From assembly GCA_016188575.1 (NCBI GenBank), contig JACPHN010000012.1, positions 8,197-72,196 of the forward strand: a stretch of 64,000 nt of DNA, written 5' to 3'. Source of the DNA: Candidatus Schekmanbacteria bacterium. GTDB lineage: Bacteria; CSSED10-310; JACPHN01. Shown here piece by piece: positions 6,506 to 58,062 of this stretch (within the stretch, counting starts at the first letter, position 1; every line of letters begins with the position of its first letter). A model generated the notes under the pieces. The model was not told the DNA's origin. It ran no database searches and saw only the letters and a program-made list of their open reading frames with translations. A program made the position numbers and the translations under genes.

Positions 6506-7132
6506 GTGTCTGCCCCCCTTTTTTCCGGAAGTGCAATGGTTCGCGGTGGTTTCATGGAAACGCAGTGGAAATGTGGACGTGTACATATCCTGGCGGCCAT
6601 AGCAGCGGCACTTGCCGCCGCGGCGCTCATGACCCCGGAACCGGAGCAGAGCGCGCTGACGGCGTGGTTTTTCCCGGGTGCCCCCGGCGCCAGCGCATCT
6701 CCTTCCGCTCGGCGCGTTTCCGGCTCCGCTGGCTACCGGGAGCTGCGCGGCGCGCTACTGGCGCAACTTGATCGGCTACCGGTCAAGGAGCAGGACGGTA
6801 GCGAGCGACCTGTCGTGCTGAGCCCGACCGCGATCGCCGGCGATTACGTCGGCGTTGTCGCGCCGCCGCTGAGCGGCCAGACTGCGCAGCAGCAGCTCGA
6901 GGCACTGGATGAGATGACCGCTGCACCGATCGAGAAGCTCATTTCGCTGTTTCCGGATCTGCGCGAGTCGGGTGACGGCACCGCGGCCGACCGCGAAGTG
7001 ATGGCGCGAGCGCGGGTAGCGGCTCTCGTAGCGTTGCTCGAGCTTGACGGCCACCGCACCCGGGCGGCGCGGGCAAGTGGCTTCGAGCCGCGCGAAGCCG
7101 TAGCCGGCACCGGCAACTCCCCGCCGCAATAA
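6506..7132 (+). CDS. hypothetical protein with N-terminal hydrophobic/signal segment
   Basis: Track ORF. Hydrophobic stretch RVHILAAIAAALAAAALM near the N-terminus. No recognisable domain. Alternative starts at 6536/6554. Confidence 0.4.
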   Translation: MSAPLFSGSAMVRGGFMETQWKCGRVHILAAIAAALAAAALMTPEPEQSALTAWFFPGAPGASASPSARRVSGSAGYRELRGALLAQLDRLPVKEQDGSERPVVLSPTAIAGDYVGVVAPPLSGQTAQQQLEALDEMTAAPIEKLISLFPDLRESGDGTAADREVMARARVAALVALLELDGHRTRAARASGFEPREAVAGTGNSPPQ

Positions 7133-7179
7133 GGCCAATGGCGCCAGCGCGCCGCCTTGGCGGGCGATCGGAAGGCTCC

Positions 7180-7325
7180 CGGATTCGTCACCTGCAGGCT
7201 GTGCGAAAAGCACATCACGAAGACGCCGCACCTCACCTCCCCCCGCACGCGGAGGGAGGGTGGGGGGCGCTGAGGCGCAGATGCGGACCGGCGGTGGATC
7301 CAGGGAGCTTCGGGTCTCCTTGACA
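7180..7325 (+). repeat. copy A of a ~140-bp dispersed repeat (hairpin core CCTCCCCCC..GGAGGGAGGG); its 3' end supplies the TTGACA -35 box
   Basis: Shares CATCA(C/A)GAAGAC(G/T)CC, CTCACCTCC..GCGG(A/G)GAGGG and GGCGGTGGAT blocks with the copies at 32008-32150 and 41791-41955. Confidence 0.7.
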
Positions 7326-7348
7326 CCAGCCTCATCCGGTGGTATAAT
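7320..7348 (+). promoter_or_regulatory. consensus sigma70-type promoter (TTGACA-17 nt-TATAAT)
   Basis: TTGACA at 7320-7325, a 17-nt spacer, TATAAT at 7343-7348. It sits ~200 bp upstream of rsgA and ~70 bp upstream of the leader ORF. Confidence 0.55.
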
Positions 7349-7420
7349 CGAGTTTATTCTCGCGTAGCTTTCATCTGCTACGCCCCGCATGACCTCATAC
7401 CTCGGGAAAGGAGGCTGTTT

Positions 7421-7480
7421 ATGGTGCGCAGAGAATATGCAGGATTCGCCCCCAGCCTCGTATCGAGGTCGGTGCGCTAA
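7421..7480 (+). CDS. 19-codon leader ORF (MVRREYAGFAPSLVSRSVR) in the rsgA 5' leader
   Basis: AAGGAGG (7408-7414) 6 nt before ATG 7421; TAA at 7478-7480. Flanked by hairpins at 7362-7383 (gcgtagc-N8-gctacgc) and 7494-7510 (cccac-N7-gtggg). Confidence 0.3.
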   Translation: MVRREYAGFAPSLVSRSVR

Positions 7481-7549
7481 CCGGGGTCTTGCGCCCACTG
7501 ATGCGGTGGGAATACACATTCCGGTTCGCGGCTCCGGCTTTCGCCATTC

Positions 7550-8664
7550 ATGACATGTTCGCTGAACCGGAGTGTACTCGAATTGGATCTCACCAATCTG
7601 GGCTGGTGCCCGCAGTTTTGCTCGCAGTTCGACACCTTTCGCGCTGAAGGATTCCTCCCGGCGCGGATTGGGTGTGAGTATCAGCACATCTACACCATTT
7701 TCAGTGACGCCGGCATCCTCTCCGCGCGCGTCTCGGGCCGCTTCCGTCATCGCGCCGATGATCGCTCGGATTTTCCCGTAGTCGGCGATTGGGTTGCGGT
7801 CGAGCTCTCGAGCCTCCGCGATCAAGCAACCATCCATGCGACTCTACCGCGGCGAACTTCCGTTTGCCGAAAAGTCGCGCCGGCAACGTGACCGATCGCC
7901 AGGTCATCGTCGCCAACATCGACGTGCTTTTCATCGTCTGCGCACTCGACTTCGACTTCAACATCAGAAGGATCGAGCGATATCTCGCCGTTGCCCGCGA
8001 AAGTGGCGCCGAGCCTGTCGTCGTCCTCAACAAGGCCGACCTCGTCGCCGACCCGGCCGCATTCGTGCAAAAGGTCTCGCAGACCGCTCCCGAAGCGCCG
8101 GTTCTCGTCATGTCCGCCCTGGAGGGAGCGGGAATCGACCAGCTTGGTCACTACTTGAGCCGTGGCAAGACCGGTGCTCTGCTCGGATCGTCGGGCGTTG
8201 GAAAATCGACCATCCTCAACAGCATGATGGGGCTGGAGCTTCAGGAAACCAACTCCGTGCGGAGCTCGGATGGGCGCGGCCGCCACACCACCACGTCGCG
8301 CGCCCTCGTGCCCTTGCAAAACGGCGGTGCCATCATCGACAACCCGGGCATGCGGGAAGTTCAAGTGTGGTGCGAAGACGAGAGCATAGACGCCGTCTTC
8401 GACGACATCGAGGCGCTCTCCGAGGACTGTCGATTCAGCGATTGCTCGCATACTGTCGAACCGGGGTGCGCGATTCTCGCCGCCGTGGGCGCCGGAGCAA
8501 TCGATGGGGAACGCCTCGGGAACTATCGGAAACTCCAGCGCGAAGCGGCGTTCCTGGCACGCCGCCAGGACCAGCGCGCAAGGCTGGACGAAAAAAGGCG
8601 TGTCAAGCAGATCACCAAGCGGTTCGAGCGCCGAGCTCGATCGGCCAACCGGGGCGGCGCGTAA
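7550..8664 (+). pseudogene. rsgA: ribosome small-subunit-dependent GTPase A (RsgA/YjeQ), interrupted by an apparent 1-nt frameshift near 7876-7882 (or a sequencing error)
   Basis: OB-fold N-terminus (CEYQHIYTIF..RVSGRFRH..PVVGDWV) in frame 7550..7891. Circularly permuted GTPase motifs (LNKADL, GSSGVGKSTILN, DNPG) and a Cys/His zinc finger (CRFSDCSH..C) in frame 7789..8664. The frames would join as ..RKVAPGNVTDRQVIVANID if one extra G is assumed in gcgccggcaac. Confidence 0.75.
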
Positions 8665-30998: not shown

Positions 30999-31862
30999 CT
31001 AGCGACCGCCGAAGCTCTGCTCGGTGCCGCGGATCTCCTGCCATTGTGGCGCGATGCTCATCCGTGGCGCCAGCTTGCCCTTTCCGAGCAACTTGTTCGT
31101 GGTAATCTGTTCGAGCTTGTATTCTTCTTCGGTCTCGATCTGCGACCGCAGGACGACGGTGATGACGCCGCTGTCCTGAGCAGTGATCAGGCGTCCCGCG
31201 TGCTCGGGCAGGACGGCAAGAGTCAAGTTCTGCGGATACTCTTCCTTTCCCATCCCTTTGCGGCCGCCGACTTCGCCCCGCTTCTCCTGCGCTTCACGTT
31301 CCTCCTCGATCGTCTGCAGTTGCTCAGGGGTAATGGCGGACATGCGGCGCTCGACAGCGAGCACGAGGATGTTCTGGAGAAGCAGCTCCGTCGCGCTTAC
31401 CCGGTCGTCTTCGTCCTTGATCTGAAACGTTCCGAAGATGTCTACGTAGTTTCCGGGGCGCACCAAGCCGGCGACGCCGGTCACGTCATTGACCACCAGG
31501 CTCAGTGCTCGATACCCCGGCGGTACTTTCAGGGCGAGGCCGGTCTCCAAGCCGAAGGAGAACAGCTTGGTCTTTAGAATCTGTTCGCCGCTGAGCATAG
31601 GGGTCGAAGTCACTTGCCCGACCGCTTCCTTTTCAGACTTCAGGGCTCCAGGCTGGATGTATGCGGCCGGAACCTTGATGATCTTCACCATAATGTCATC
31701 GACGCGCTCGTATTGGAGGATGTCACGGGTCGCGACAAGAACGTCTTGCTCCGAGCCTAGCTGCATGTATTCTTTTTCTACCTGGCCGATGTAGCGGTAG
31801 ATTAGCGCCCCCACGATCAGCCCTAGCATGATAGAAATGAGCAGTCCCTGCTTGCTTTTCAT
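30999..31862 (-). CDS. cpaB: Flp pilus assembly protein CpaB/RcpC (SAF domain)
   Basis: N-terminal TM (LLISIMLGLIVGALIY) and CpaB-like body. Directly upstream of the secretin. Confidence 0.75.
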   Translation of the reverse strand: MKSKQGLLISIMLGLIVGALIYRYIGQVEKEYMQLGSEQDVLVATRDILQYERVDDIMVKIIKVPAAYIQPGALKSEKEAVGQVTSTPMLSGEQILKTKLFSFGLETGLALKVPPGYRALSLVVNDVTGVAGLVRPGNYVDIFGTFQIKDEDDRVSATELLLQNILVLAVERRMSAITPEQLQTIEEEREAQEKRGEVGGRKGMGKEEYPQNLTLAVLPEHAGRLITAQDSGVITVVLRSQIETEEEYKLEQITTNKLLGKGKLAPRMSIAPQWQEIRGTEQSFGGR

Positions 31863-32007
31863 GTCGCAGCCTCACCTCCCAGGGCCCCGCCATCGAGCTC
31901 GCGAGCAAGGATACCCGGCCGGGCCTTGCGCGGGGTGCATCGCCGTCCAATTTCAACGGCAGTTTACCGGCGAAGGTCCGGTAGCGCAAGGGGCCGTATT
32001 CGCCTAA

Positions 32008-32150
32008 ATCCGCCGCCAGATCGACTGCAAGTTGAGCGGAAAGCGCATCAAGAAGACTCCCCGCTTCACCCGCACGTGAGGGGAGGGACGCAGGAGCACT
32101 GTCACGTGGACATCGAACTGGCGGTGGATATGGGCTCGGGTCCTGAGCGC
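32008..32150 (+). repeat. copy C of the ~140-bp dispersed repeat, inside the tad gene array (between pseudopilin and cpaB)
   Basis: AATCCGCCGCC..CTGCAAG..GCGGAAAGCGCATCAAGAAGACTCC..GAGGGGAGGGACG..GGCGGTGGAT blocks shared with copies A and B. Confidence 0.7.
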
Positions 32151-32229
32151 GGGCTGCCAACAACGCCAATGCCGGGTCGCGGCGATGCGCTGCTACCCGG
32201 CATTGATAGATTCGCTATTGGGCGATGGA

Positions 32230-32595
32230 TCAACTGCAGTTTTCGACAGACGTCCTAGGCCAGGGGCGATGCGGTTGATACAACTTGACCGTGCTCGAGA
32301 ATTCGGCGAGCCCTTGGGGCTTGAAAAAGATCCATTTTGCCGTCTTCAGCGTCACGCAGGGTTGATTTTCATCGTCGTCCCAGCCCAGTTGCGGTTCCAC
32401 CATTCGCTCCAGAGCGTCGTTGCGAGCTGCCGAAAACGCGTACGTCTGGTTCCAGTTTCCGATGATGTAGGTAATGAGCAACAGCACGACGGGAATGAAC
32501 ACCAGCATGATGACGAGCAGCACCTCGAGAATGGATTGGCCGCTCTCACCCTTCATTCGCCGCGGGGTCCCGCTCTGCATTTTCACGTTTCGCAT
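32230..32595 (-). CDS. TadE-like pseudopilin
   Basis: ATG at 32593-32595 with GGGAGA upstream. N-terminus ..GESGQSILEVLLVIMLVFIPVVLLLITY typical of TadE/pseudopilins. Confidence 0.6.
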   Translation of the reverse strand: MRNVKMQSGTPRRMKGESGQSILEVLLVIMLVFIPVVLLLITYIIGNWNQTYAFSAARNDALERMVEPQLGWDDDENQPCVTLKTAKWIFFKPQGLAEFSSTVKLYQPHRPWPRTSVENCS

Positions 32596-34841: not shown

Positions 34842-35580
34842 GGCTGATACTCCTTTCCGGCTGGGCTTATGCAATCTTCATACCAGAGCAATCGTCCTCG
34901 CGGATCTGGCGCCGTCGCGCAGGAATAGCGCCGCAGCGCACTTTCCTCTCCTGGCAGGGGGCCGCACTGAAGGGGTTCGCTGGCCGACTGTGGAAGCAGG
35001 TTCACACTCCTCGCCCCGAGGGTGCGCGGCGATGCCCATGAGGCGCAGTCTGCCGTTGGGAACACTTCTTCACAGCAGATGCAGCAGCGTGCATAGCGTC
35101 GGGCCTCGGTCCGCACTGCCGCTGCCCTCGCGCCGCAAACGAGACCGGCAGAACTGCGGCGATACGCATGGCCCATTGACAAAAGTACCCCCGGCGCGAC
35201 TCGAACGTGCAACCTGCGGATTAGCATACCCCACCCGGTTTCCCGAGCCACCGCTCGCCGCGGTGTTGGAGTCTGGACTATATCTTCGCCATTCCAGGCG
35301 CGGCGCGTATAGTCTCTGAGGGTCCTTGGTAGTGCCTCTACAGGCCTCGCCCGCGGTTCCCTGCGGATTGCCCATTGTCGCATCCCGAGGTCTTTTTTCA
35401 CCGTCACGTACGCTCGCCACGCGGGCCGCGTTGTGGTGCCTCGGGCTTTAGGGGTTCCCCGCATACTGCGCCGTCCACTTCCACGGTTGGGCCTCGCCAC
35501 AGCGATGCTGGTTCCCGCGGAAGGCTCCTTGTTGAAGTCCGCTGCTCTATCCTTTGAGCTACGGGGGCAGTTCTGTTCTC

Positions 35581-37049
35581 CTATCCTCCGGCCGAGCTTC
35601 CCTTGCCAAGCTCGGTCCGCAAGCGACGAAGCGTCTTCGCGATCACCTCATCCTGCTTGTCCAGATCCTCGATTTTCTTGCACGCGAAGATGACGGTGCT
35701 ATGATCTCTCCCACCGAACTTGCTGCCGATTTCCGTGGTCGAGTCATTGGTAAGCTCGCGCGCCAGATACATGGCAATCTGTCTGGCTTCGGCAACCGGC
35801 TTGGTGCGCCCCCTGGCTCGGAGGTCGCGCGACTTGAGGCTAAAATACTCCGCCACGCGATCGATCACAAGCTCTGTTGTCACCCGCGCCTCCGGTTCGT
35901 TGAGGATGTCGCGCAGCACTTCGCGGACAAAGGGGACGGTGATGCGATTCCCGCGGAAAGCGGCCTGAGCCGCAACGCGGTTGAGACACCCTTCGAGCTC
36001 GCGAACGCTGGACGTCACGCGCTCGGCAATGAAGAGCGCCGCATCGTCGGGCACCTTCACCTTCAGTGACGCCGCTTTCTTGCGGATGATGGCCACCTTG
36101 GTTTCGAGGTCTGGCGGCTGGATGTCGACAATCAGGCCGCACTCGAACCGCGATCGCAGCCGGTGCTCGAGGGTCTTGATGTCCTTGGGCAGGCGGTCGC
36201 TGGTCAATACGATCTGCTTATGGGCGTCATATAGCGTATTGAAGGTATGAAAAAACTCTTCTTGCGTGCGCTCTTTTCCCGCCAGGCCATGGACGTCGTC
36301 GATCATGAGCAGGTCGACCTTGCGGTACCGTTCCCGGAAGCCGGTGACCTGCTGGTTGGTGATCGATTCGATCATTTCTTCCATGAAGCGCTGCGACGGC
36401 ACGTAGCACAGCCTCACTTCGCCGCCGCCGACAGCGGCGCGACTTGCCACCACGTGGCCGATCGCGTGCAACAGATGCGTCTTGCCCAAACCACTGCCGC
36501 CGTAGATGAAGAGCGGGTTATAGCGCCCCGCGGGATGCTCGGCAACGGACAGCGACGCCGCGTGCGCAAATTGGTTTCCCGCCCCCACGACGAAATTGTC
36601 AAACGTGTAGCGGGTACTGAGCGGCATGCCCGTATATTCGCAACTGCCCTGTCGGCCCGCGACGGCGCCTTCCTCGACCAGCGCGGCAAAGAGGGTTTCT
36701 ACTCCCGGGTTTTCCGGGCCACCCTTGGGATCGGCTGCAGCAAGGCGCCGCGTCGTTGGCCGCCGACCTGGCGCAGCGCTCCGGAACGCCGCCTGAGCGG
36801 GAACCGGCTCGGGATGCGCGAAGACGACCGACACCTCCTGCCCGTCATCGCAAACCTCGCGAATGGTCTCCTGGATCAGGTGCGCGTAGAACGTTTTTAG
36901 ATATCGGCCGTGATCAGCATTGGGAACGGACAACACAACGTTGTCACCCATGTGACGTTCCAGGCTAACCGGCGCGAACCATCGCTCGTAACATCTTGAG
37001 GTCACCTTTGCTCGTAGGCCTTCCTGAACGCGCGGCCATAGGTTATCCA
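35581..37049 (-). CDS. dnaA: chromosomal replication initiator protein DnaA
   Basis: N-terminus MDNLWPRVQEGLRAKV.., AAA+ Walker A GGSGLGKTHLL, box VII..., C-terminal DNA-binding domain (ARQIAMYLARELT..). GAGGTG RBS. The track ORF extends to 37098 but the conserved start is ATG 37047-37049. Confidence 0.9.
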
Positions 37050-37341
37050 TCTGGTAGCCCACCTCAAATGTACACAGCAGCCCGCGGGCACAAACCACCT
37101 ATCAGGACCGGGAGACTGGTAGGAGAACTATCACGAGGTCCTTGAGAAGCGCTCTATGGGCGACCCCCAATCGCCATCTTTCTCCTACGGACCTCTTGAT
37201 CTGTTGTGTAGCGGACCATAGCTGCTCTCGAAGTATCCCCAACAACCGACAACAGGAAAGTACCAGGGCACCGTCCGGGTGTCAAGTCGTGAGCCATCGA
37301 CAGCTAGATTTCGGCACCCGCCGCTGCCGGCCGTCGGCGGC

Positions 37342-39121: not shown

Positions 39122-39982
39122 TCAGCGGGCCTGGCGAACCTCCAGCTTGCGAACCACTAACTGGGTCGGATCGACGTCTTCAGAGACTCCTTCAAACTTG
39201 CAGAGCGCGCGCCCATCGATGATGTGCGTATCGGAGCTCTGCCGCAATCCGCCGTCCCCGGGAAAAGCGACGGTCAGACGCAGTCGCGCGCCATCGAGAT
39301 TGCGGTCCGGGGTCTGCAGGGCGACTACGTAGTTATCGCCGATACGGAAAACTTCGGCAATCGTGAAGGCGCTCATGGTTCGACGACGGGCGGGTTGATG
39401 CAGAGCCAGAGCGGGGCCGGCTTCGGGCGGCGCGGGCGGGCCAACCTCCAGGGGCTCGGGCGCCGGTTCCTCGGCGGCTTCGGGTGGCGCCGACGGCTCG
39501 CTGGCCTCGCGTACGCCCGATCTGGTCTTGCGCTCCGCGCGCAGCAGTAATTCGCGCTCCGCCCGCAGCGAAGCCAGCTCCTTGCTGCACCGGGCGCACC
39601 GCAAGAGATGCTCCCCGCCCTCGAGTGAAGACGCGCGGCCGAGCGCTTCTTCGACCAGCGCCCACCAAGGTAGACATTCGGAGGAGCGATCGCGCAGCAG
39701 CCGCTCGTCCTGAATACCGAGCGCGAGCAGCAGCTCGCGCTCGCGCGCCTCGCACTGATCGCGGCAGTGTTGGCACCGCCGCATGTGGTCGGCGAGCAAG
39801 GCCGCTTCGGAGTCAGAAAGCGCATCGAGGCAGTACAGAGTGATCTTCTCATTCACCAGGTCGTGCACCTGGACGAGCTCAAGACCGAGGTCCGCGTTAC
39901 CCGGGTCGAGGGCAAGCAGTCTGAGCAACTCTTCTTTGCGCAGGAGCAGATAATTGATGGGGAAGTTCGCGGGATCGATCAT
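39122..39982 (-). CDS. zf-HC2 (anti-sigma-factor-like) zinc-finger protein
   Basis: H-x3-C-x2-C motif (LADHMRRCQHC) of zf-HC2 anti-sigma factors plus a second CARC pair. Its start overlaps the upstream stop (ATGA 39979-39982). Confidence 0.5.
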   Translation of the reverse strand: MIDPANFPINYLLLRKEELLRLLALDPGNADLGLELVQVHDLVNEKITLYCLDALSDSEAALLADHMRRCQHCRDQCEARERELLLALGIQDERLLRDRSSECLPWWALVEEALGRASSLEGGEHLLRCARCSKELASLRAERELLLRAERKTRSGVREASEPSAPPEAAEEPAPEPLEVGPPAPPEAGPALALHQPARRRTMSAFTIAEVFRIGDNYVVALQTPDRNLDGARLRLTVAFPGDGGLRQSSDTHIIDGRALCKFEGVSEDVDPTQLVVRKLEVRQAR

Positions 39983-41763
39983 CGCTCGGCGCCGGGGTTT
40001 GGACCGCTCTGACTATAGGCCGCGATCAGCTCGGGGACGCGTCGCAGTGCCTCGCTGCCGCCCACGGGCCGGTCATATAGACGCATTACCATGAGCATGG
40101 CACCCATCCACTCCAGGCCCCGATGGACCAGGCGCGCTTCGGGAAGATTCGTCAGGAACTCGTCGCGAGTTGAGAAGCGCTCGATGACAATCCCGGACCA
40201 CCCGAGCCGGACAGAGTCCAGGTGGGCTCCCGACCCGGCGGTGAGGGAGTGTCTCGCCGTGTGTGGTTCGGCCAGGCGCGCAGCGGAGGCGGCAGGTCCG
40301 TCAGCGCCGGCCTTCAGATTCCAGGCCTCCAGCACCACGGCGCCGGGGCCAACCTGTCGTGTCAAGCCTGCCAGCACGGTTCCTGATCTGTCCCCCTTCA
40401 GGAGCCATGAATCCCCGGATGGACCATCCGGGATCAGAACGATGCCGTTCTGACAGCTCACCTCGTAGGCAAACTGGTCGGCGGGGATGCCGTCGACGAC
40501 ATCGGAAACGAAGAGACCGGCCAGGCGCGGAAACGACGCATGCTCCTCGCCCCGCGGGACGGTGACGCGGACGCCGTGGATCAGGCTCAAGCCGTCGGTC
40601 GCGGCTACCGCCTCGGCGTCGGTGACGAGTTGGCCGAAGCCGCTTCGTTGAAAGAGGCCATGGGGGCGCTCGTAGGGGACGAGAATGGCGGCGCCGTCGA
40701 GGCCGCGGCGAGCGAGCCGAACGCGCCATTGCGGCAATCTTCCGATGCGCTCACGGCAAAACGGCAGCACGTGCATGTCGAGATACCGTCGTTCCGCGAG
40801 CTCCTCGCGAATGACCTGCCGGGCGTCTGCAATCTGCCTGAGGTTGAGGCGAAAAGGTTCGTCCTCGGATCCACCGGTCAGACCGACTTCCTCACAAAGC
40901 AGGGTGCGGCGAAGAAAGGAGACGAGCAAAGGGGAAAGATCGGTGGTTTGCAGACAATGAAGGAATTTCTCCTTGAGGATCCCGAGGCCGATCTCGCGAA
41001 CCGATTCGCGGTAAAGCTGTCTGAAGTAGGCGGTGCCGGCGTCGCGGAGATCGCCCGCCGGGCGTTTTCGATGGACCACATAGTCCCAGAGATCGCGCCG
41101 GGCGTCGCGGTCGAGACCGACGAGTGCGCGGAGGGGGAGTGGCGTCGCCGTGTCATAGTGTTCAGGAACGGCTGCGGCCCGCACCCACCAGGGGCGGGCG
41201 AGCCCGAGCAACAAGATATCGAGTAGCGAATGCCGCTGCTCTCGATCCAAACCGCGAAAGAACGGATGGTCGGGCACTTTGAAGCGCGCCTCGAAGAGGC
41301 TGGTGCCGATCCGCGGGGAGAAGGTTTCCTGCCACCGCACGGCGTGGCACTCGCGGGCAAACAGGCGGATCATCTCATCGGCCGGATCGAGTCGATCCGC
41401 GGAGAGGAAAAGGCGCAGGCGCCAATCCGACACGATTTGGCGGCGTTCAAATGGCGACAGATCGATGGAGGGGTCAACACGCCGGCGCGACGCCGCCAGC
41501 GTCCGCACCCATACGCCAACCTGTGGGCTCAAGATATGGTGCAAGTAGTCGACAGGCACAGCTCGCAAACGATGCGATGACCCCCGCCCCGCGGCCGGGT
41601 CACCTGGGTGGATGACTGCTTGTTCTTGCCAGGCCAAGCGGCAGAAACTCGCCGGCAGGGCCGCCGTCAACCGCTCGGTGAGCAGCCCGCCGAGGCCCAT
41701 CGCGTAGCTCGTCACCACGCCGCGCTGAGATTGGCACAAGCCGATGATAAGTCCAGCCCACAC
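39979..41763 (-). CDS. large hypothetical protein (594 aa), no recognised domain
   Basis: Long GC3-rich ORF. GTG start at 41763 (the ATG alternative is ~60 nt downstream). Translationally coupled to the zf-HC2 gene. Confidence 0.45.
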   Translation of the reverse strand: MWAGLIIGLCQSQRGVVTSYAMGLGGLLTERLTAALPASFCRLAWQEQAVIHPGDPAAGRGSSHRLRAVPVDYLHHILSPQVGVWVRTLAASRRRVDPSIDLSPFERRQIVSDWRLRLFLSADRLDPADEMIRLFARECHAVRWQETFSPRIGTSLFEARFKVPDHPFFRGLDREQRHSLLDILLLGLARPWWVRAAAVPEHYDTATPLPLRALVGLDRDARRDLWDYVVHRKRPAGDLRDAGTAYFRQLYRESVREIGLGILKEKFLHCLQTTDLSPLLVSFLRRTLLCEEVGLTGGSEDEPFRLNLRQIADARQVIREELAERRYLDMHVLPFCRERIGRLPQWRVRLARRGLDGAAILVPYERPHGLFQRSGFGQLVTDAEAVAATDGLSLIHGVRVTVPRGEEHASFPRLAGLFVSDVVDGIPADQFAYEVSCQNGIVLIPDGPSGDSWLLKGDRSGTVLAGLTRQVGPGAVVLEAWNLKAGADGPAASAARLAEPHTARHSLTAGSGAHLDSVRLGWSGIVIERFSTRDEFLTNLPEARLVHRGLEWMGAMLMVMRLYDRPVGGSEALRRVPELIAAYSQSGPNPGAER

Positions 41764-41790
41764 CTGGAGTCAACCGCGCCCCCAGGGCCT

Positions 41791-41955
41791 GAATCCGCCG
41801 CCGGTTCGCCTGCAAGGCACGCGGAAAGTCCATCACGAAGACTCCCCATCTCACCTCCTACCGCAAGCGCGGGGAGGGACGGGGGGGCGCTGCCGCGTCG
41901 ACTTCGAGCAGGCGGTGGATTCAGGAGGGCACGCCGGCCGGCAGGGCTTGACGTC
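41791..41955 (+). repeat. copy B of the ~140-bp dispersed repeat, ending in TTGACG-17nt-AACAAT upstream of the 42102 gene
   Basis: Same conserved blocks as copies A and C. Lies in a divergent intergenic region. Confidence 0.7.
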
Positions 41956-42101
41956 TGATGATTCGGCAGCAACAATTTCGCGGGCCGTTCCGGATGCCAA
42001 CAATCGCTCATGGCCGCCCTGTGCCGTGGCGGGATGAAGGCCTCCGGTCATGACCACATCTGGTATCAGCACCCGCCCGTCGGGCAAAGTGGACCTGGCA
42101 A

Positions 42102-49431: not shown

Positions 49432-51207
49432 CTAGCGCCCCGGTTCCTCGTGCATCGCTTTGAAATCCCGCAGGTTTGGCGCCCATAGATGCTTCACCGG
49501 GTCGACATCGACGTGCACCACCGCACACCGCCCCGCCCGGAGGCAACGCGCGAGCGCCCCACGCAGCGCCTGCGGGTCGCCGACACGCTCCGCGTATGCT
49601 CCCAGGGCGCGGCCCAGCTTGTCGAATTCGATCTCGCGGAAGTCGGTGTTGATGGTCTCATCCGGTCCCAACGATCGCAGCAGCAGCGTCTTGAGAGGTC
49701 GCAACGCAAACTGCTGGTTCATCTTGACCATTCCCCACTGCTTGTCGCACAGCACCAAAAAGATGACGTCGAGCCCATCGCGCACCGCGGTTTCGATCTC
49801 CTGGCAGTGCATGGCCATCGCCCCGTCACCGATGATGCAATAGACCGTGCGCGCGGGGTGAGCAACCTTGGCGCCCAGGGCCTGGCCGATCCCGGCACCG
49901 AGCATGCCCATCTTGAACGTCGTCAGCACCGAGCGCGGCGCGCGGACCTCGTGGTAAAACTGCGCCCAGATCGACGTATTGCCGCCGTCCACGACGAGGA
50001 TAGCGTCATCACCGAACACCTCCTGGCAGATGCCGGCGACGTGCGCGGAGCACATGGGCACGGAGGTGTCGGACAGTGCGCTGTCGAGCTTCTGGCGGCG
50101 CGCCCGGCAGGCGGCGCCAAGCCGCTCGACGAAGGCGCGGCGCTCCGGCATCGCCGCCGGCGGATTCAGCGCCTGCAGGCGCTCGAGGAGCGCGACGAGG
50201 AAAGATCTGGCGTCGGCCTGAATCGCGAGGTCGGCGGGTCTGTTAGCGCCGAGCGGATCGGGCTCGAGGTCAACGTGGATCAGACGTTGCTGCCGTGGAT
50301 CACCCCAGTAGGGCGGCTTTCCCCACCAGTCGGTCTCCCCCATCCGCGTGCCGACAGCCAGCACGACGTCCGCACCGCGGCGCGCCTCGTTGACCGCCTC
50401 GACATAGATCATGGGGACAGCGTGGCGAGCACGCTCGTCAACCGCCGACCGCCCCCCCCAGCTTGTCGTGATGGGCGCTTCCAGGAGCGCCGCCAGCGCC
50501 GCGAGCTCGCGACCCGCATCCCCATGCAGCACACCCGAGCCCGCATGAAGGAGCGGGCGACGCGCCTCGGCGAGCATCGCCGCGGCGGCGGCAACCGCAG
50601 CCGGGGACGGGTGCGGAAGCTCGGCGCGATAGGTCTCGGGCGCACGGAACCAGGCGTCGTCAGAGTCGAACGTGCCGTTCATGATGTTCTCCGGAACGTC
50701 GACGTGCACCACTCCAGGGCGCCCCATGAAGCAGGTCCGCAGCGCGCGCCTGAGAATCTCCGCGAGCCGGTCCGCCGCGGGAACCACGCAGCTCCACTTC
50801 GCCATCGACTTGATGACCTCGACGTGCGGGAAGTATTGAAAAGTGCCGCCCCGATCGGGATACGAAATCCCCGTTCGGCGGCAGCTCGTGATCAGCAAGA
50901 CGCGGTTTCCCTCCGCGTTTTCCACGGCGATCCCGGGCAAGATGTTGGCGACACCGGGTCCGTTGCTGGCGATGCAGACGCCGAGCTTTCCGGTAGACCG
51001 CGCGTACGCCCCGGCCATGTGCGCGGCGCAGGTTTCGTGGCGCGGGGATACGAGTCGGATGCCGTTTTCCGCCAGCTTCGAGTAGAACCCGAAGTAGGTT
51101 CCGTCGATGATGCCGAAGACGTGCTCGACGTGCTCGGCGGCGAGCATCCTGGCCGCGATTTCGCCGCCCTTGACGTGCTGCCGACTCGTGCTCGCGATGA
51201 GCGCCAT
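49432..51207 (-). CDS. thiamine-pyrophosphate-dependent enzyme (acetolactate-synthase/benzoylformate-decarboxylase-like)
   Basis: TPP_enzyme N/M/C pattern and the TPP-binding GDGAMAM motif. Start at MALIASTSRQ (ATG 51205-51207, GGGAGGA upstream); the track ORF to 51702 is an artefactual extension. Confidence 0.8.
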   Translation of the reverse strand: MALIASTSRQHVKGGEIAARMLAAEHVEHVFGIIDGTYFGFYSKLAENGIRLVSPRHETCAAHMAGAYARSTGKLGVCIASNGPGVANILPGIAVENAEGNRVLLITSCRRTGISYPDRGGTFQYFPHVEVIKSMAKWSCVVPAADRLAEILRRALRTCFMGRPGVVHVDVPENIMNGTFDSDDAWFRAPETYRAELPHPSPAAVAAAAAMLAEARRPLLHAGSGVLHGDAGRELAALAALLEAPITTSWGGRSAVDERARHAVPMIYVEAVNEARRGADVVLAVGTRMGETDWWGKPPYWGDPRQQRLIHVDLEPDPLGANRPADLAIQADARSFLVALLERLQALNPPAAMPERRAFVERLGAACRARRQKLDSALSDTSVPMCSAHVAGICQEVFGDDAILVVDGGNTSIWAQFYHEVRAPRSVLTTFKMGMLGAGIGQALGAKVAHPARTVYCIIGDGAMAMHCQEIETAVRDGLDVIFLVLCDKQWGMVKMNQQFALRPLKTLLLRSLGPDETINTDFREIEFDKLGRALGAYAERVGDPQALRGALARCLRAGRCAVVHVDVDPVKHLWAPNLRDFKAMHEEPGR

Positions 51208-51257
51208 GTGAGATCCTCCCGAAGTTGGAGCAATGCCGGGGCCGGGCCGGCGCGATG

Positions 51258-51273
51258 TTAACCGATCGGTTAA
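51258..51273 (-). promoter_or_regulatory. perfect 16-bp palindrome TTAACCGATCGGTTAA next to an AT-rich -10-like TATTAT; candidate TetR operator
   Basis: Palindrome ~50 bp upstream of the TPP-enzyme start codon, on the transcribed side of ATAATA (51274-51279). Confidence 0.45.
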
Positions 51274-51628
51274 ATAATAAGCATGCCAGGGCAATCGGTC
51301 AAGTGACAAGAGCGCAGAGCTCGCTCTATCCACCGCCGGTTCGCCGTCGCTGTGACAGTGACCCCCTCCCTCGCCCTGCAAGCGGCATAAGCGCCCGGAT
51401 AAGGAATGGCAGCGCGTAATAGCCATCCTCCGCTCACTGGAGGGAGGCCAGGAGAGGGGAACAACGGCGAGAAATTCCTCGGGCCCGAGGCAACCTCGGC
51501 CCCCCGACGGTCGCGGGGACGATCTCTGACCGGTTTGTGCAGCCTGACCTGCCGACATGCGTCGGGCAGGCTCGGCCAGGACTCGCCCGCGAGATCCCGC
51601 CTGGCGAGGCGCACAGGTCCCGACCCGA

Positions 51629-54600
51629 TCACTTCTCTGGATCTGGCCCGCGACGATCTTCCCGTCGCGCAACGGGACGAGCGGTCGAGCGACGCCGAGC
51701 ATGAGCGGGTCGCGGGACGCAAGGCAATCCGGCGGCGAGGAGCAACAGGCACAGAACCTTGGGGTCGAGCAACGGCACCCCGTCCGCGGCCGGGGCGGTT
51801 TCGCAGACCGTGTTGGAAAGCTGGCCGTCCTGGCCTCCCTTCGTCGCCTTCACGGCGAAGCAGTAGGTGTCTCCTGGCGAGAACAGGTTCGGAAAGGTAA
51901 GCGACGTTTGTCTGGAAACCTGGATCTGGCCCGAGAGCTGATCCGCGGATACCCCCCAATAGACAATGTAGTCGGTTGCTCGCGCGGCAGGCTGCCAGCT
52001 AAGGGTAGCGCTGTAGGCGCCCGCTCGCGGCAAGCGGCCCGCCAGAGCAGTGGTCGTCGCATCGGGCGCCGTCGCCGAGGGAGCTCCGAACATGATGCCC
52101 AGCGCCACCCCGCGCGCGATTCCGACCGGAGCGTCCACCACGAACGATGCTACGGGGCCGTCGGGAAGCGCATTGCCATCGGAGTCAGCGACGCGAATAA
52201 GCTGAAAGGTGTAGGACCCATCGGGCGCCAGCTCCCCGACTTCGTAGCTCGCAGTCGCATTCGTCGTTGAGCGCCACTCGAGGTCCACGTTCGCCACCTG
52301 AACGTCATCCTGAAGCACCAGGACGCGCCCTTGGTCCGTGCTCATCGGCCGGCTGAGCGCGATCGTCAGCCCGACAGTCTCGCTTCCCGCGATGGGTGGC
52401 GACGCCATCGCGCTCACGACGAAGGCGGGCGCGTCGGCTATGGGAACGGCCGAGGGGTTGTCCCAGAAGACCGAACCCCTCGCATAACTGTCCGCATGGT
52501 CGTAAATGCGCCGGGCGATCTCGAAGCCGTCGGTGGTCCCCCAGTAGCTCCCCTCCGCGTGAGCTCCCGGCCCCGGCCACGGCGGAGCCACGACATCGAA
52601 CAGCCCGGAACCGCCCGTGTTGTTCGCCGTGATGTTATTGGACTGGATCGAGGCGTACCCGTCGAGAAGCATACCGCCCCGATTGCCCGTAATCGTGTTG
52701 TTGGTGACGACCGCTTCGGCGGAGCGGATGCGCAGCGGATGCTCCGCGAGCCCCCCCGTGACGGACGACCCGTAGAGGATGGAGTCGCCGCCGAGATCGA
52801 TCCTGCCGATGCCGTCAAAGGAGCTATTCCGGACCGCCGCGGGAGCAAGCACGACCTCGTCGGCCACTCCGGCCATGCGACAATCCTGGATGAGGGGCCC
52901 CCCGGCAATTTCACCGCCGATGTACACCGCGCTGAGCCCTTCTGCAAGCTCGCAGTGCTCGAGAATCGATCCGCCGATGTAGCTCCCTTCGGCGTCGACG
53001 ACTCCGGGTTGCCCATCCGCGCCGAAGATGATCGTCACCCTGCAATAGGTGGAGCCGGCCTCACAGCTTTCCTTGTCGATCGGCGCAATCGTGATGGGTA
53101 GTCCTCCATCCGCGCCGCGGGCGATTAGGGTGCCGTCCACGAGCAGAAGCGCCAGGTGGTCGAAAAGGAGCTCCGCCCCCCCCACGATCTCCAGGCTCGC
53201 GCCAGACTTGACGTGCGTCGTGCCGACGAAGCGATAGCGTCCACCCGCGGGGAGACGGAGGATGCCGTCGACATCGCCGGTGATCTCCTGCGCGACCGGC
53301 AAGGTCACCGTCGACTGACGGTGAGGCTCCTGTGCGATGAGAATCGTCAAGTCCATCGACACGTCCCACGCGGAAACCTCCGAGCCGACCGTGACGAGAA
53401 AGGGAGCCCCGACATTGCTCAACTCGTCCCCCGACGGGGCTCGCGCAAAGGTCACCGCGGCGCTGCCGACCGTGACGCCCCGCTCGGTCGTTTCCAGCGT
53501 GGCCGTAACTCCCTCGGCGGAGAAGGTGGCATCGCTCAGGTGCACAATCAACCCAACCGTCTCGCCGTGCTCGGCGGCACCGTCGCCATCGCAAGATGGA
53601 CAGCCGGGCGTTGGGGAGTCGTCGACGTCGACATCGGTGACTTGTAGATTCAGGGGCGGGGTCGCAGTCAGCGCCGCGTGGGCGTCCACCAATCTGACTC
53701 TGACTGCGGACTCTTCCCGGTAAGGCGCGGTGTGCACGACTTGCAGAGCGGCTCGGCGAATGTCCCAGTCGGGATGAAGCGACACGACCAGCGCGATCAC
53801 GCCCGCGACGTGTGGTGCGGCCATGCTGGTCCCTTCCCATGAGGAATAGGTCTGGCCGGTCATGGTCGACCAGATTCCCGTGCCGGGGGCGTAGACATCC
53901 ACCCAATCCCCGTAGTTGGAAAAGGGCGCGCGCCCGCCCGACGTGTCGGTTGCGCCGACACCGATCACGTGGTCGTAGGCGGCGGGGTATGTAGGCGCTT
54001 CCCAGCCGTCGTTGCCGGCAGCTCCGACGCAGACCATCCCGGCGGTCTCCGCGGCCGCGTCGACCGCCTCGCGGACCGCCTCGGAGCTCGTATGGAAACC
54101 GAGCGCCAGAACGGCCACCTTGGCGTCGCCTTCGGCCGCCTTCAGGATCCCCTCGGCAACCAGGGACACGGTACTGGCTCCTCCCATTCCGAGCACCTTG
54201 ATCGGCAAGATTCGACAGCCCCAGCACACTCCGGCGATTCCCCTGCTGTTGTTTCCGTCCGCTGCCGCTATTCCCGCCACGTGCGTGCCGTGCCCGGAAT
54301 CGTCATACAAAGGGCGCGCCGAGCTGGGAGAACCGTTGACCAGATCCCACCCGGGAATGGTGAGCAGGCGATCGGCCGAGAAGTCGGGGTGGTCGGCGGC
54401 GAGGCCGCTGTCAATCACGGCGATGGTCACCGACGAGTCGCCGGTCGTGACCTCCCAGGCCTCGGGTGCGTTGATGTCGACGTTCACGTGGGAATCCGGG
54501 GTCGTAGGGGAGTCCAGGCCCCACTGGGAGCTAAACTTGGGGTCGTCGGGTACGAGGCCGGCTGCGGTGACCACCGCATCGAGCTCTGCCCATTCGACAT

Positions 54601-55054
54601 CCGCGTTTTGGGCCAGGTCTCGCTGCGCCGCGGCCGCCTCCCCGGAATCGTCGAAGCTCAGGATGAGCGTGCGCAGCAGCCCCCCGATGGCTTCCGCTCC
54701 GGCTACGGCTCGCTCGTCTCGGCGGTTGAGAGATTTCATGCGCAGCGCGAGAAGAGCCGCGCGCGAGCGGTACAATGGCCGGACCGCCGTGGCACCGAAT
54801 GCGAACCGATCGACCTCAGCCGGCACGCCCGCAGCCTGCAGCCGCTGGCCGAGGCTCGATCCCGCGCTCAGCTTGACGATTACCTGTGCCGGTACCGGCT
54901 CCTTTCCGCCGGCGCGCCCGGCGGGCAGCGTCAGGGTCATCGCCGCGAGAACGACGAAGGCCAGACGGGCCACCGCTGCGGCCCGGAAGAGACCCTGGCG
55001 CCCGAGGACGCGACCACGACTCCAAGGATCTCGACAACTATTCGCACTGCTCAC
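51629..55054 (-). CDS. large secreted subtilisin-like S8 peptidase with beta-helix repeats and C-terminal FN3-like domain
   Basis: S8 triad motifs DSGLAADHPDF / HGTHVAGIAA / GTSMAAPHVAGV. Long parallel beta-helix-like Gly/Asn-rich repeats. FN3-like C-terminus. GTG start at 55054. Confidence 0.8.
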   Translation of the reverse strand: MSSANSCRDPWSRGRVLGRQGLFRAAAVARLAFVVLAAMTLTLPAGRAGGKEPVPAQVIVKLSAGSSLGQRLQAAGVPAEVDRFAFGATAVRPLYRSRAALLALRMKSLNRRDERAVAGAEAIGGLLRTLILSFDDSGEAAAAQRDLAQNADVEWAELDAVVTAAGLVPDDPKFSSQWGLDSPTTPDSHVNVDINAPEAWEVTTGDSSVTIAVIDSGLAADHPDFSADRLLTIPGWDLVNGSPSSARPLYDDSGHGTHVAGIAAADGNNSRGIAGVCWGCRILPIKVLGMGGASTVSLVAEGILKAAEGDAKVAVLALGFHTSSEAVREAVDAAAETAGMVCVGAAGNDGWEAPTYPAAYDHVIGVGATDTSGGRAPFSNYGDWVDVYAPGTGIWSTMTGQTYSSWEGTSMAAPHVAGVIALVVSLHPDWDIRRAALQVVHTAPYREESAVRVRLVDAHAALTATPPLNLQVTDVDVDDSPTPGCPSCDGDGAAEHGETVGLIVHLSDATFSAEGVTATLETTERGVTVGSAAVTFARAPSGDELSNVGAPFLVTVGSEVSAWDVSMDLTILIAQEPHRQSTVTLPVAQEITGDVDGILRLPAGGRYRFVGTTHVKSGASLEIVGGAELLFDHLALLLVDGTLIARGADGGLPITIAPIDKESCEAGSTYCRVTIIFGADGQPGVVDAEGSYIGGSILEHCELAEGLSAVYIGGEIAGGPLIQDCRMAGVADEVVLAPAAVRNSSFDGIGRIDLGGDSILYGSSVTGGLAEHPLRIRSAEAVVTNNTITGNRGGMLLDGYASIQSNNITANNTGGSGLFDVVAPPWPGPGAHAEGSYWGTTDGFEIARRIYDHADSYARGSVFWDNPSAVPIADAPAFVVSAMASPPIAGSETVGLTIALSRPMSTDQGRVLVLQDDVQVANVDLEWRSTTNATASYEVGELAPDGSYTFQLIRVADSDGNALPDGPVASFVVDAPVGIARGVALGIMFGAPSATAPDATTTALAGRLPRAGAYSATLSWQPAARATDYIVYWGVSADQLSGQIQVSRQTSLTFPNLFSPGDTYCFAVKATKGGQDGQLSNTVCETAPAADGVPLLDPKVLCLLLLAAGLPCVPRPAHARRRSTARPVARREDRRGPDPEK

Positions 55055-55275
55055 CTCTGGCTCCTCCGTATGCGAACGAAAAGGCCCCCGGGGGAGGGTT
55101 CACCCCAGGGAATCGACGCCTACCCGGCGTGCTGCCCTCGATTATCATTGTGGTCCGTCGCAGGAAATTCGGCCAGCCACCGGCCCGCCCACGGGAGTGG
55201 CCAGGCCGGGAAAGGAAACGCCGCGCTGCTTGCCCACCGGGTGGCCCGGCCCGGGTTGATAGTTTCCGGGTAAAT

Positions 55276-55314
55276 GTTCACCCCCTCCCCCCCAGGCGGA
55301 GGGAGGGGGTGAAC
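55276..55314 (-). terminator. perfect 14-bp-stem GC-rich hairpin (GTTCACCCCCTCCC-N11-GGGAGGGGGTGAAC) 20 bp downstream of the FG-GAP protease gene; related to the core of the dispersed repeat
   Basis: Inverted repeat read directly from the sequence. No strong U-tract (ATTTACCC follows on the minus strand). Confidence 0.45.
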
Positions 55315-55333
55315 AGATACGTTTCCCGCCGTT

Positions 55334-58009: not shown

Positions 58010-58062
58010 GGGATGTCTTTCTCGCAAGGTGATTTGAGGCGGAGCTTTCAGGGTGGCTGACA

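Follow-up and report, generated by a model that had tools for sequence, protein, structure and literature searches.

The window analysed here, a stretch of 64,000 nucleotides from a genome deposited as Candidatus Schekmanbacteria bacterium, contains a real and previously undescribed family of dispersed repeats. Our main reading, to which we assign a probability of roughly 0.6, is that the repeat is an old, lineage-specific and non-coding MITE-like element bounded by terminal inverted repeats. The family totals four full copies and one half copy in about 77 kb of the host genome. Copies A, B and C and the half copy D lie in the window, and copy E was found on another contig of the same genome when the search was extended beyond the window with the Logan contigs of run SRR12113422 (Table 1).

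The repeat family and its anatomy

Over an aligned length of about 130-140 nt, copies A, B and C were 68-76% identical in pairwise comparisons, with a mean column identity of 75%. They were recovered by their own nhmmer profile with E-values of 1e-43 to 1e-49 and by a covariance model with scores of 123-161 bits, which bears out an earlier interpretation, made from the letters alone and here called the sequence-only reading, that had recognized these three as homologous. The conserved blocks quoted in that reading are all present, and the core block GCGRAAAGNNCATCANGAAGAC was matched three times in the window where 0.03 matches were expected. The flanks of different copies are unrelated in sequence. 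The G+C content of the copies is 61-70%, and the tips of the inverted repeats are 127-138 bp apart, which is far below the upper size of about 1 kb for a MITE. The unit as a whole measures about 130-140 bp. A filter-free scan with the covariance model detected no further copies in the window. Likewise, 7 kb of Logan contig past the left end of the window contained no copy, and 6 kb on the other contig contained copy E. The copies had been described as intergenic and all plus-oriented; the first part of this statement holds, whereas the second is wrong because the 3'-half copy D is located on the minus strand (E 4e-7).

Table 1. Coordinates of the repeat copies, their parts, a stand-alone hairpin and the neighbouring promoter-like sites.
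Feature	Position	Strand	Description
Copy A	7178..7304	+	Full length, decayed; covariance model 122.6 bits
Copy B	32003..32134	+	Full length; covariance model 135.6 bits
Copy C	41788..41925	+	Best preserved; covariance model 160.7 bits
Copy D	51314..51400	-	Covers the 3' half only (3' arm of the hairpin through right inverted repeat); model positions 85-160, nhmmer E 3.9e-7
Copy E	L076 5996-6137 (other contig, same genome)	-	72 bits, E 6e-16
Left terminal inverted repeat of C	41788..41808	+	CCTGAATCCGCCGCCGGTTCG
Right terminal inverted repeat of C	41905..41925	+	CGAGCAGGCGGTGGATTCAGG
Central hairpin of A	7231..7266	+	CCTCC/GGAGG; helix 5, 100% paired in four copies
Central hairpin of B	32057..32087	+	Re-formed from other bases after 6-nt deletion
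Central hairpin of C	41843..41886	+	Predicted fold
Stand-alone near-perfect hairpin	55276..55314		Resembles the central hairpin of copy A
Promoter-like site	7320..7348	+	TTGACA-17-TATAAT, 12/12 matches, TG before the -10; 15 nt past copy A
Promoter-like site	41948..41976	+	TTGACG-17-AACAAT; 22 nt past copy C
Promoter-like site	41744..41773	-	TTGACT-18-TATCAT; faces away from C, 14 nt from its left end
Promoter-like site	51274..51302	-	TTGACC-17-TATTAT; about 12 nt past copy D, precedes the TPP-enzyme gene

The most telling and defining feature, which was overlooked in the sequence-only reading, is the pair of imperfect terminal inverted repeats of 15-20 bp at the ends of the element, 5'-CCTGAATCCGCCGCC(GGTTCG) ... 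(CGAGCA)GGCGGTGGATTCAGG-3'. The two arms in copy C are 21 nt in length, 86% complementary and 96 nt apart. The inverted repeats are also present in B, partly deleted in A and degenerate in E, and GGCGGTGGAT in the right repeat is invariant across A, B, C and D. The outer helix that they form consists of 15 pairs, two of which have changed on both sides. Between the ends lie a small hairpin formed around CTGCAAG, a central hairpin and a conserved core, GCGGAAAG..CATCACGAAGAC, for which the fold prediction shows no pairing. The imperfect CCTCC/GGAGG hairpin said to be common to the copies was found in each of them. Fold z-scores of -4.8 for C and -5.0 for B are in line with long closed stem structures. 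Several copies have decayed. Copy A has lost part of its left end through an 8-nt deletion in the left terminal inverted repeat and is altered elsewhere by indels (4 nt and 1 nt). In B, 6 nt are deleted from the central hairpin in its 5' arm, the whole 5' half is absent from D and most of the right end is absent from E.

The stand-alone hairpin had been regarded as a core-only copy of the family. It has the exact 12-mer GCGGAGGGAGGG in common with copy A (two matches, 0.02 expected) and, since this 12-mer is found only there and in copy A, its status as a core-only copy is plausible; as a family member it is not detectable by nhmmer, and its covariance-model score is only 16.5 bits. It may be related to the hairpin module of the element. 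It is located about 20 nt past the stop codon of a minus-strand gene (55334-58027), in a terminator-like position. A second hairpin, at 32167-32205, has 18-nt arms that are 89% complementary and a 3-nt loop, and lies about 25 nt past the stop codon of a 121-aa minus-strand gene, of which it is probably the terminator. Both terminator-like hairpins are without a U-tract (no clear one in the case of 32167-32205), which suggests that terminators in this host may lack U-tails.

We searched for relatives of the element in several databases. As the sequence-only reading had proposed, a match to a known element was sought in Rfam with cmsearch, and no Rfam family matched anywhere in the window at gathering thresholds; under permissive settings (E <= 10 / E <= 1) the best hit over C reached 11.7 bits (E 9.8) and nothing was obtained over A. 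A search for the exact core pattern in 185,579 species genomes and in the JGI metagenomes yielded single chance matches, which failed in nhmmer beyond the pattern. These negatives are weak because copy E fails the pattern and the window's own copies were not returned; the latter implies that the source MAG is absent from the searched sets or masked there. Nothing similar was seen in viral contigs, plasmids or phages, and copy C had no blastn match (word size 11) in any of the 5,426 complete E. coli genomes.

Judging from its proteins, the host lineage is very isolated, with no close relatives in the databases. The best foreign match to DnaA (35581-37098) among 5.8 billion proteins is 46% identical, and the 573-aa gene at 39979-41700 beside copy C is an ORFan with no homologue. 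The precomputed list of Pfam domains for this DnaA is without the DnaA_N domain that nearly all of its matches carry. The G+C content of the window is 64%, versus about 38% as suggested by the names of other Schekmanbacteria genomes, and the NCBI label 'Candidatus Schekmanbacteria bacterium' (MBI2565743.1) may for this reason be loose.

Coding potential and genomic setting

The sequence-only reading had ascribed to the repeats a protein-like conservation pattern and raised the prospect of a small basic peptide. We therefore examined indels and substitutions by codon position. When A, B, C and E were aligned under guidance of the model, the indels, described as exactly one and two codons, measured 8, 6, 4, 2, 1, 1 and 1 nt, so that only one of the seven is a multiple of 3. 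The substitutions, for which third-position changes had been emphasized, were evenly spread over the codon positions, with counts of 8/12/13 for B versus C in the frame used by that reading and 25/27/22 for the four copies in the GC3-rich frame. No phase bias was observed in any segment or frame (core permutation p = 0.97). The residues V-D-x-E-x-A-V-D are encoded in B and C, and the same place in A reads R-C-G-P-A-V-D.

It is correct that the frame ..RK(A/V)H(H/Q)ED.. is open in A, B and C, but with indels of random phase it is not conserved as a frame, and open frames are expected by chance at a G+C content of 64-70%; in these sequences of 61-70% G+C several frames are open. The copies have no start codon and no SD or other ribosome-binding site in common. 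The GC3-rich frame, which is the most gene-like, is interrupted by stops in A, B and C. A 3-base periodicity in G+C content is present (for example 0.64/0.80/0.38 in B), and the stretch K-x-I-x-K-T-P-H-L-T-S of the GC3-rich frame includes three adjacent codons that vary at the third position only (ACT/ACC/ACG, CCC/CCG and CAT/CAC); we regard both as anecdotal, or at most as a trace of ancient coding ancestry. Searches with the three stop-free frames of copy C, a query set that leaves out the GC3-rich frame, gave no match at E <= 0.001 among 1.84 billion representative proteins. A Logan gene call reads through copy E in the GC3-rich frame. Random-phase indels without frame conservation are what the sequence-only reading itself had taken to indicate a plain REP/MITE. 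We also considered and discarded a minus-strand SD and ATG in the core (GGGGAG-N8-ATG), since the peptides downstream differ in length and frame and none joins the flanking gene.

All copies are intergenic; the one apparent exception, E, owes its 'coding' status to an automatic gene call that was extended too far. Copy A is situated between an ORF at 6506-7132 on the plus strand and the promoter of rsgA. Copy B lies in the Tad operon between the 121-aa gene (32230-32595, minus), with its terminator-like hairpin, and cpaB (30999-31862, minus), and is antisense to both neighbours. Copy C is placed exactly between two divergent promoter-like sites. Copy D separates an S8 peptidase gene (51629-55054, minus) from the gene for a TPP enzyme, the Pfam domains of which start at residue 178 of ORF 49432-51702, and copy E starts about 20 nt past the stop codon of a co-oriented gene, with no promoter-like site nearby. 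With A, D and E co-oriented with their neighbours and B antisense, the element occurs in either orientation relative to genes.

Hexamers of the -35 type are located 13-22 nt from the ends of A, C (on both sides), D and, weakly, B. The sequence-only reading had two copies end in a -35-like TTGAC(A/G). The hexamers at 7320 and 41948 are real and have good -10 partners, but 15-22 nt separate them from the terminal inverted repeats, in sequence over which the copies no longer align, and they are thus neighbours of the element and not parts of it.

Several other features were observed in the surroundings of the copies. Downstream of the promoter-like site next to copy A, which has an extended -10, come a small hairpin, GTAGC...GCTAC (about 7365-7384), and an ORF of 19 codons (7422-7481) with a strong SD (GGAAAGGAGG-N6-ATG). 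The segment 7320-7481 is ahead of rsgA, has no Rfam match and may be a leader. The rsgA gene (7550-8664, plus) is itself distributed over two frames, with RsgA_N encoded by ORF 7550-7891 and the GTPase domain by ORF 7789-8664, implying a frameshift near 7870 (assembly error, pseudogene or recoding). On the contig with copy E, the Logan call for a PhnD-like binding protein (406 aa) runs through the copy as an N-terminal extension (L076 5996-6139), and the NCBI version (MBI2571685.1, 360 aa) starts at an ATG inside the degenerate right inverted repeat of E; the true start may be further downstream, at a signal-peptide-like segment. Large peptidases of the S8 (subtilase) family that have fn3 or FG-GAP domains are represented by at least four paralogues in about 77 kb (window 51629-58027, L069 1032-4346 and L076 490-3969), adjoined by large Ser/Thr kinase-AAA-TPR proteins, in what looks like a lineage-specific expansion.

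Origin of the copies

The REP/MITE-like element that the sequence-only reading had offered as a fallback fits the data, given the inverted ends, the hairpin, the dispersed intergenic copies in both orientations and the flanking direct repeats. Short direct repeats abut all four full copies, namely AGGG in C, GTGA in E, TCG in B and GCT in A. For this analysis, the ends were set at the tips of the inverted repeats and the right-hand repeat was allowed an offset of 0-2 nt. The probability that the summed lengths reach 14 or more was 3e-4 in comparison with random pairs of sites in the window; because the boundaries were chosen after inspection and the right repeat is offset by 0-2 nt, this value is only suggestive of a target-site duplication. 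Inverted repeats, direct repeats, the absence of a gene and a stable stem-loop make up the anatomy of MITEs (PMC10969869; PMC3184786), and both their defining features and the fading of the direct repeats with age have been reviewed (PMC10969869).

If the element is MITE-like, its copies would have been mobilised in trans by a transposase that belongs to an insertion sequence in another part of the genome. This parent would carry matching ends (CCTGAATCC..., with inverted repeats starting CCTGAATCCGCC), and each insertion would have duplicated 3-4 bp of target. We infer further that selection acted on the sites at which copies persisted, such that they survived only where insertion was harmless, either immediately ahead of -35 boxes or in the interval that separates a terminator from the promoter after it. 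The position of copies beside -35 boxes would then follow from the short spacers, which tolerate an insertion only immediately ahead of the -35. The present copies, at 68-76% identity, would be old and decaying.

No transposase or insertion sequence with matching ends was identified in the window (Pfam, about 40 candidate genes), nor were any further pairs of inverted repeats. There are no orthologous loci in which empty sites or conservation could be compared, as expected from the distance to the nearest foreign DnaA and the ORFan beside copy C. Some properties of the copies argue against a MITE. Their G+C-rich composition differs from that of MITEs, which are typically A+T-rich (PMC10969869), an identity of 68-76% is low given that only a handful of copies are known, and the retention of structure through this divergence could reflect selection on an RNA or DNA structure and not neutral decay.

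This last property leads to the alternative that the repeat is a functional structured element and not the relic of a transposon, either a small RNA from the plus strand, with the conserved unpaired core CAUCACGAAGAC as seed or protein-binding site, or a DNA module upstream of promoters that serves as insulator, terminator or regulator site. We consider this unlikely. Consistent with it, 88% of the cells in the consensus structure of four copies pair, as compared to 40-49% with slid partners, and all cells of the central hairpin do so, despite a divergence of about 28%; copy E has matching 1-nt deletions, one in each hairpin arm. Five pairs have changed on both sides, but 30 of 500 shuffles reached the observed value, so that the covariation is weak and not significant. 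Similarly, the 20 G-U pairs on the plus strand exceed the 9 A-C mismatches, and A, B and C all keep a G-U pair in their outer stem, but the excess is biased because the plus strand was the one used for the fold prediction. The -35 hexamers near the element ends and the location of A, D and E downstream of a co-oriented gene would suit such a role; however, the spacing to the -35 varies (13-22 nt), so that the helical phase is not constant, and no promoter adjoins E. No copy has a promoter-like site upstream on the same strand or a terminator-like tail after it, the copies do not share one orientation with respect to transcription (B is antisense within its operon, C lies between divergent promoters) and no Rfam family matches. 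The stronger proposition, that this is a structured RNA or DNA module of an uncultured lineage and no selfish DNA, with helices kept by selection at about 28% divergence, we hold to be rather improbable. The same applies to its possible forms, such as an insulator upstream of promoters or a multi-copy sRNA that acts on mRNAs or ribosomes through the core and an anti-SD-like arm CUCACCUCC.

Another possibility is a palindrome of the REP/BIME type, spread by a RAYT, by a single-strand transposase of the IS200/IS605 type or by recombination and not by cut-and-paste, in which case the stand-alone hairpin would represent the basic unit, around which the 130-bp element was assembled as a composite. 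The 12-mer common to this hairpin and copy A points in that direction, as does the G+C-rich composition, which is typical of REPs. A second hairpin of the kind, CCTCC(GCTCACT)GGAGG, is found at 51427-51443, directly upstream of D, where its missing 5' half would be. Yet hairpins of the form CCTCC..GGAGG are not clearly enriched beyond the elements, with 8 in the window versus 3 in the reverse order and most of them the elements themselves, and for the same reason we abandoned the idea of an SD/anti-SD hairpin as a genome-wide motif. Moreover, homology extends over 130-140 bp with long terminal inverted repeats and not over a palindrome of 20-40 nt, a size seen only in the stand-alone hairpin, no RAYT or Y1 transposase was detected among the window genes scanned, and the copies are flanked by short direct repeats, which are not expected from Y1 transposition. 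On balance a REP/BIME origin is very unlikely.

A small basic peptide, whether in the frame ..RK(A/V)H(H/Q)ED.. or in the GC3-rich frame ..K-x-I-x-K-T-P-H-L-T-S.., can draw on the frame open in A, B and C, the G+C periodicity and the run of third-position changes, but against the irregular indels, the even substitutions, the stops, the lack of a common start and the absence of homologues for the three stop-free frames of copy C it is exceedingly improbable and essentially refuted.

Two further ideas were rejected. The right inverted repeat, with ATCCACC, resembles the DnaA box TTATCCACA, and dnaA is located in the window, but there is neither a cluster of consensus boxes nor a skew switch. An origin from a tRNA, as in SINEs, was dismissed since ARAGORN finds no tRNA in the intact window. 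A tRNA-Arg(UCU) gene located just downstream of dnaA on the minus strand (35186-35568) is apparently split in the anticodon loop by what appears to be a group I intron of about 310 nt (35225-35534). In Rfam, 35186-35568 scored below threshold for Intron_gpI (21 bits, E 0.005) and for tRNA (18.8 bits), and ARAGORN called a tRNA-Arg(tct) once the insert had been removed in silico. The automatic gene call sets a 208-aa ORF over the split tRNA.

The MITE-like reading, if true, would make the family a routine addition to the MITE-like repeats of bacteria, from a deep-branching uncultured lineage. It would explain the odd open frames and the over-extended gene calls, the element would mark tolerated insertion points just upstream of promoters, and the repeat could be used as a probe for the partner insertion sequence in the full MAG. 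Greater importance would attach to the family only if the copies proved to be transcribed, structure-conserved RNAs.

Comparison with known repeat systems

The Rickettsia palindromic elements (RPEs) are similar to the family described here in being palindromic and about 100-150 bp in size, and in that both have been given a 'frame-preserving' reading. RPEs are inserted in frame within genes, whereas our copies are intergenic and contain indels that break the frame. The REP/BIME sequences mobilised by RAYTs are likewise G+C-rich, palindromic and intergenic, and the stand-alone hairpin resembles a REP-like unit. The unit of the new family is, however, four to five times as long, its unique core is enclosed by terminal inverted repeats, and no RAYT was seen in the window.

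The ERIC/IRU (RU-1) elements of Enterobacteriaceae and Vibrio, which are imperfect palindromes of 127 bp, are comparable in size to the unit of about 130 bp studied here, and they too are intergenic, have diverged copies and contain ORFs that are visible by eye. The same observation, that RU elements carry ORFs, was made by Delihas (PMC2759123). They differ in belonging to hosts of another phylum, and no sequence similarity was found in the 5,426 E. coli genomes.

The Correia elements of Neisseria are MITEs of about 100-155 bp with terminal inverted repeats, mostly located just upstream of genes (PMC10969869; PMC3184786). They have no sequence similarity to our family, and they carry -35 boxes that are here outside the element. 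In contrast to Correia elements, the copies are G+C-rich and not A+T-rich, the apparent duplication is a variable 3-4 bp and not TA, no IHF site is evident, and both mobility and a partner transposase are putative. Despite these differences, the two are alike in size class, in their terminal inverted repeats, in having no coding capacity, in the stable stem-loop that would form if they were transcribed, in the intergenic position of copies beside promoters and in the short direct repeats that flank them.
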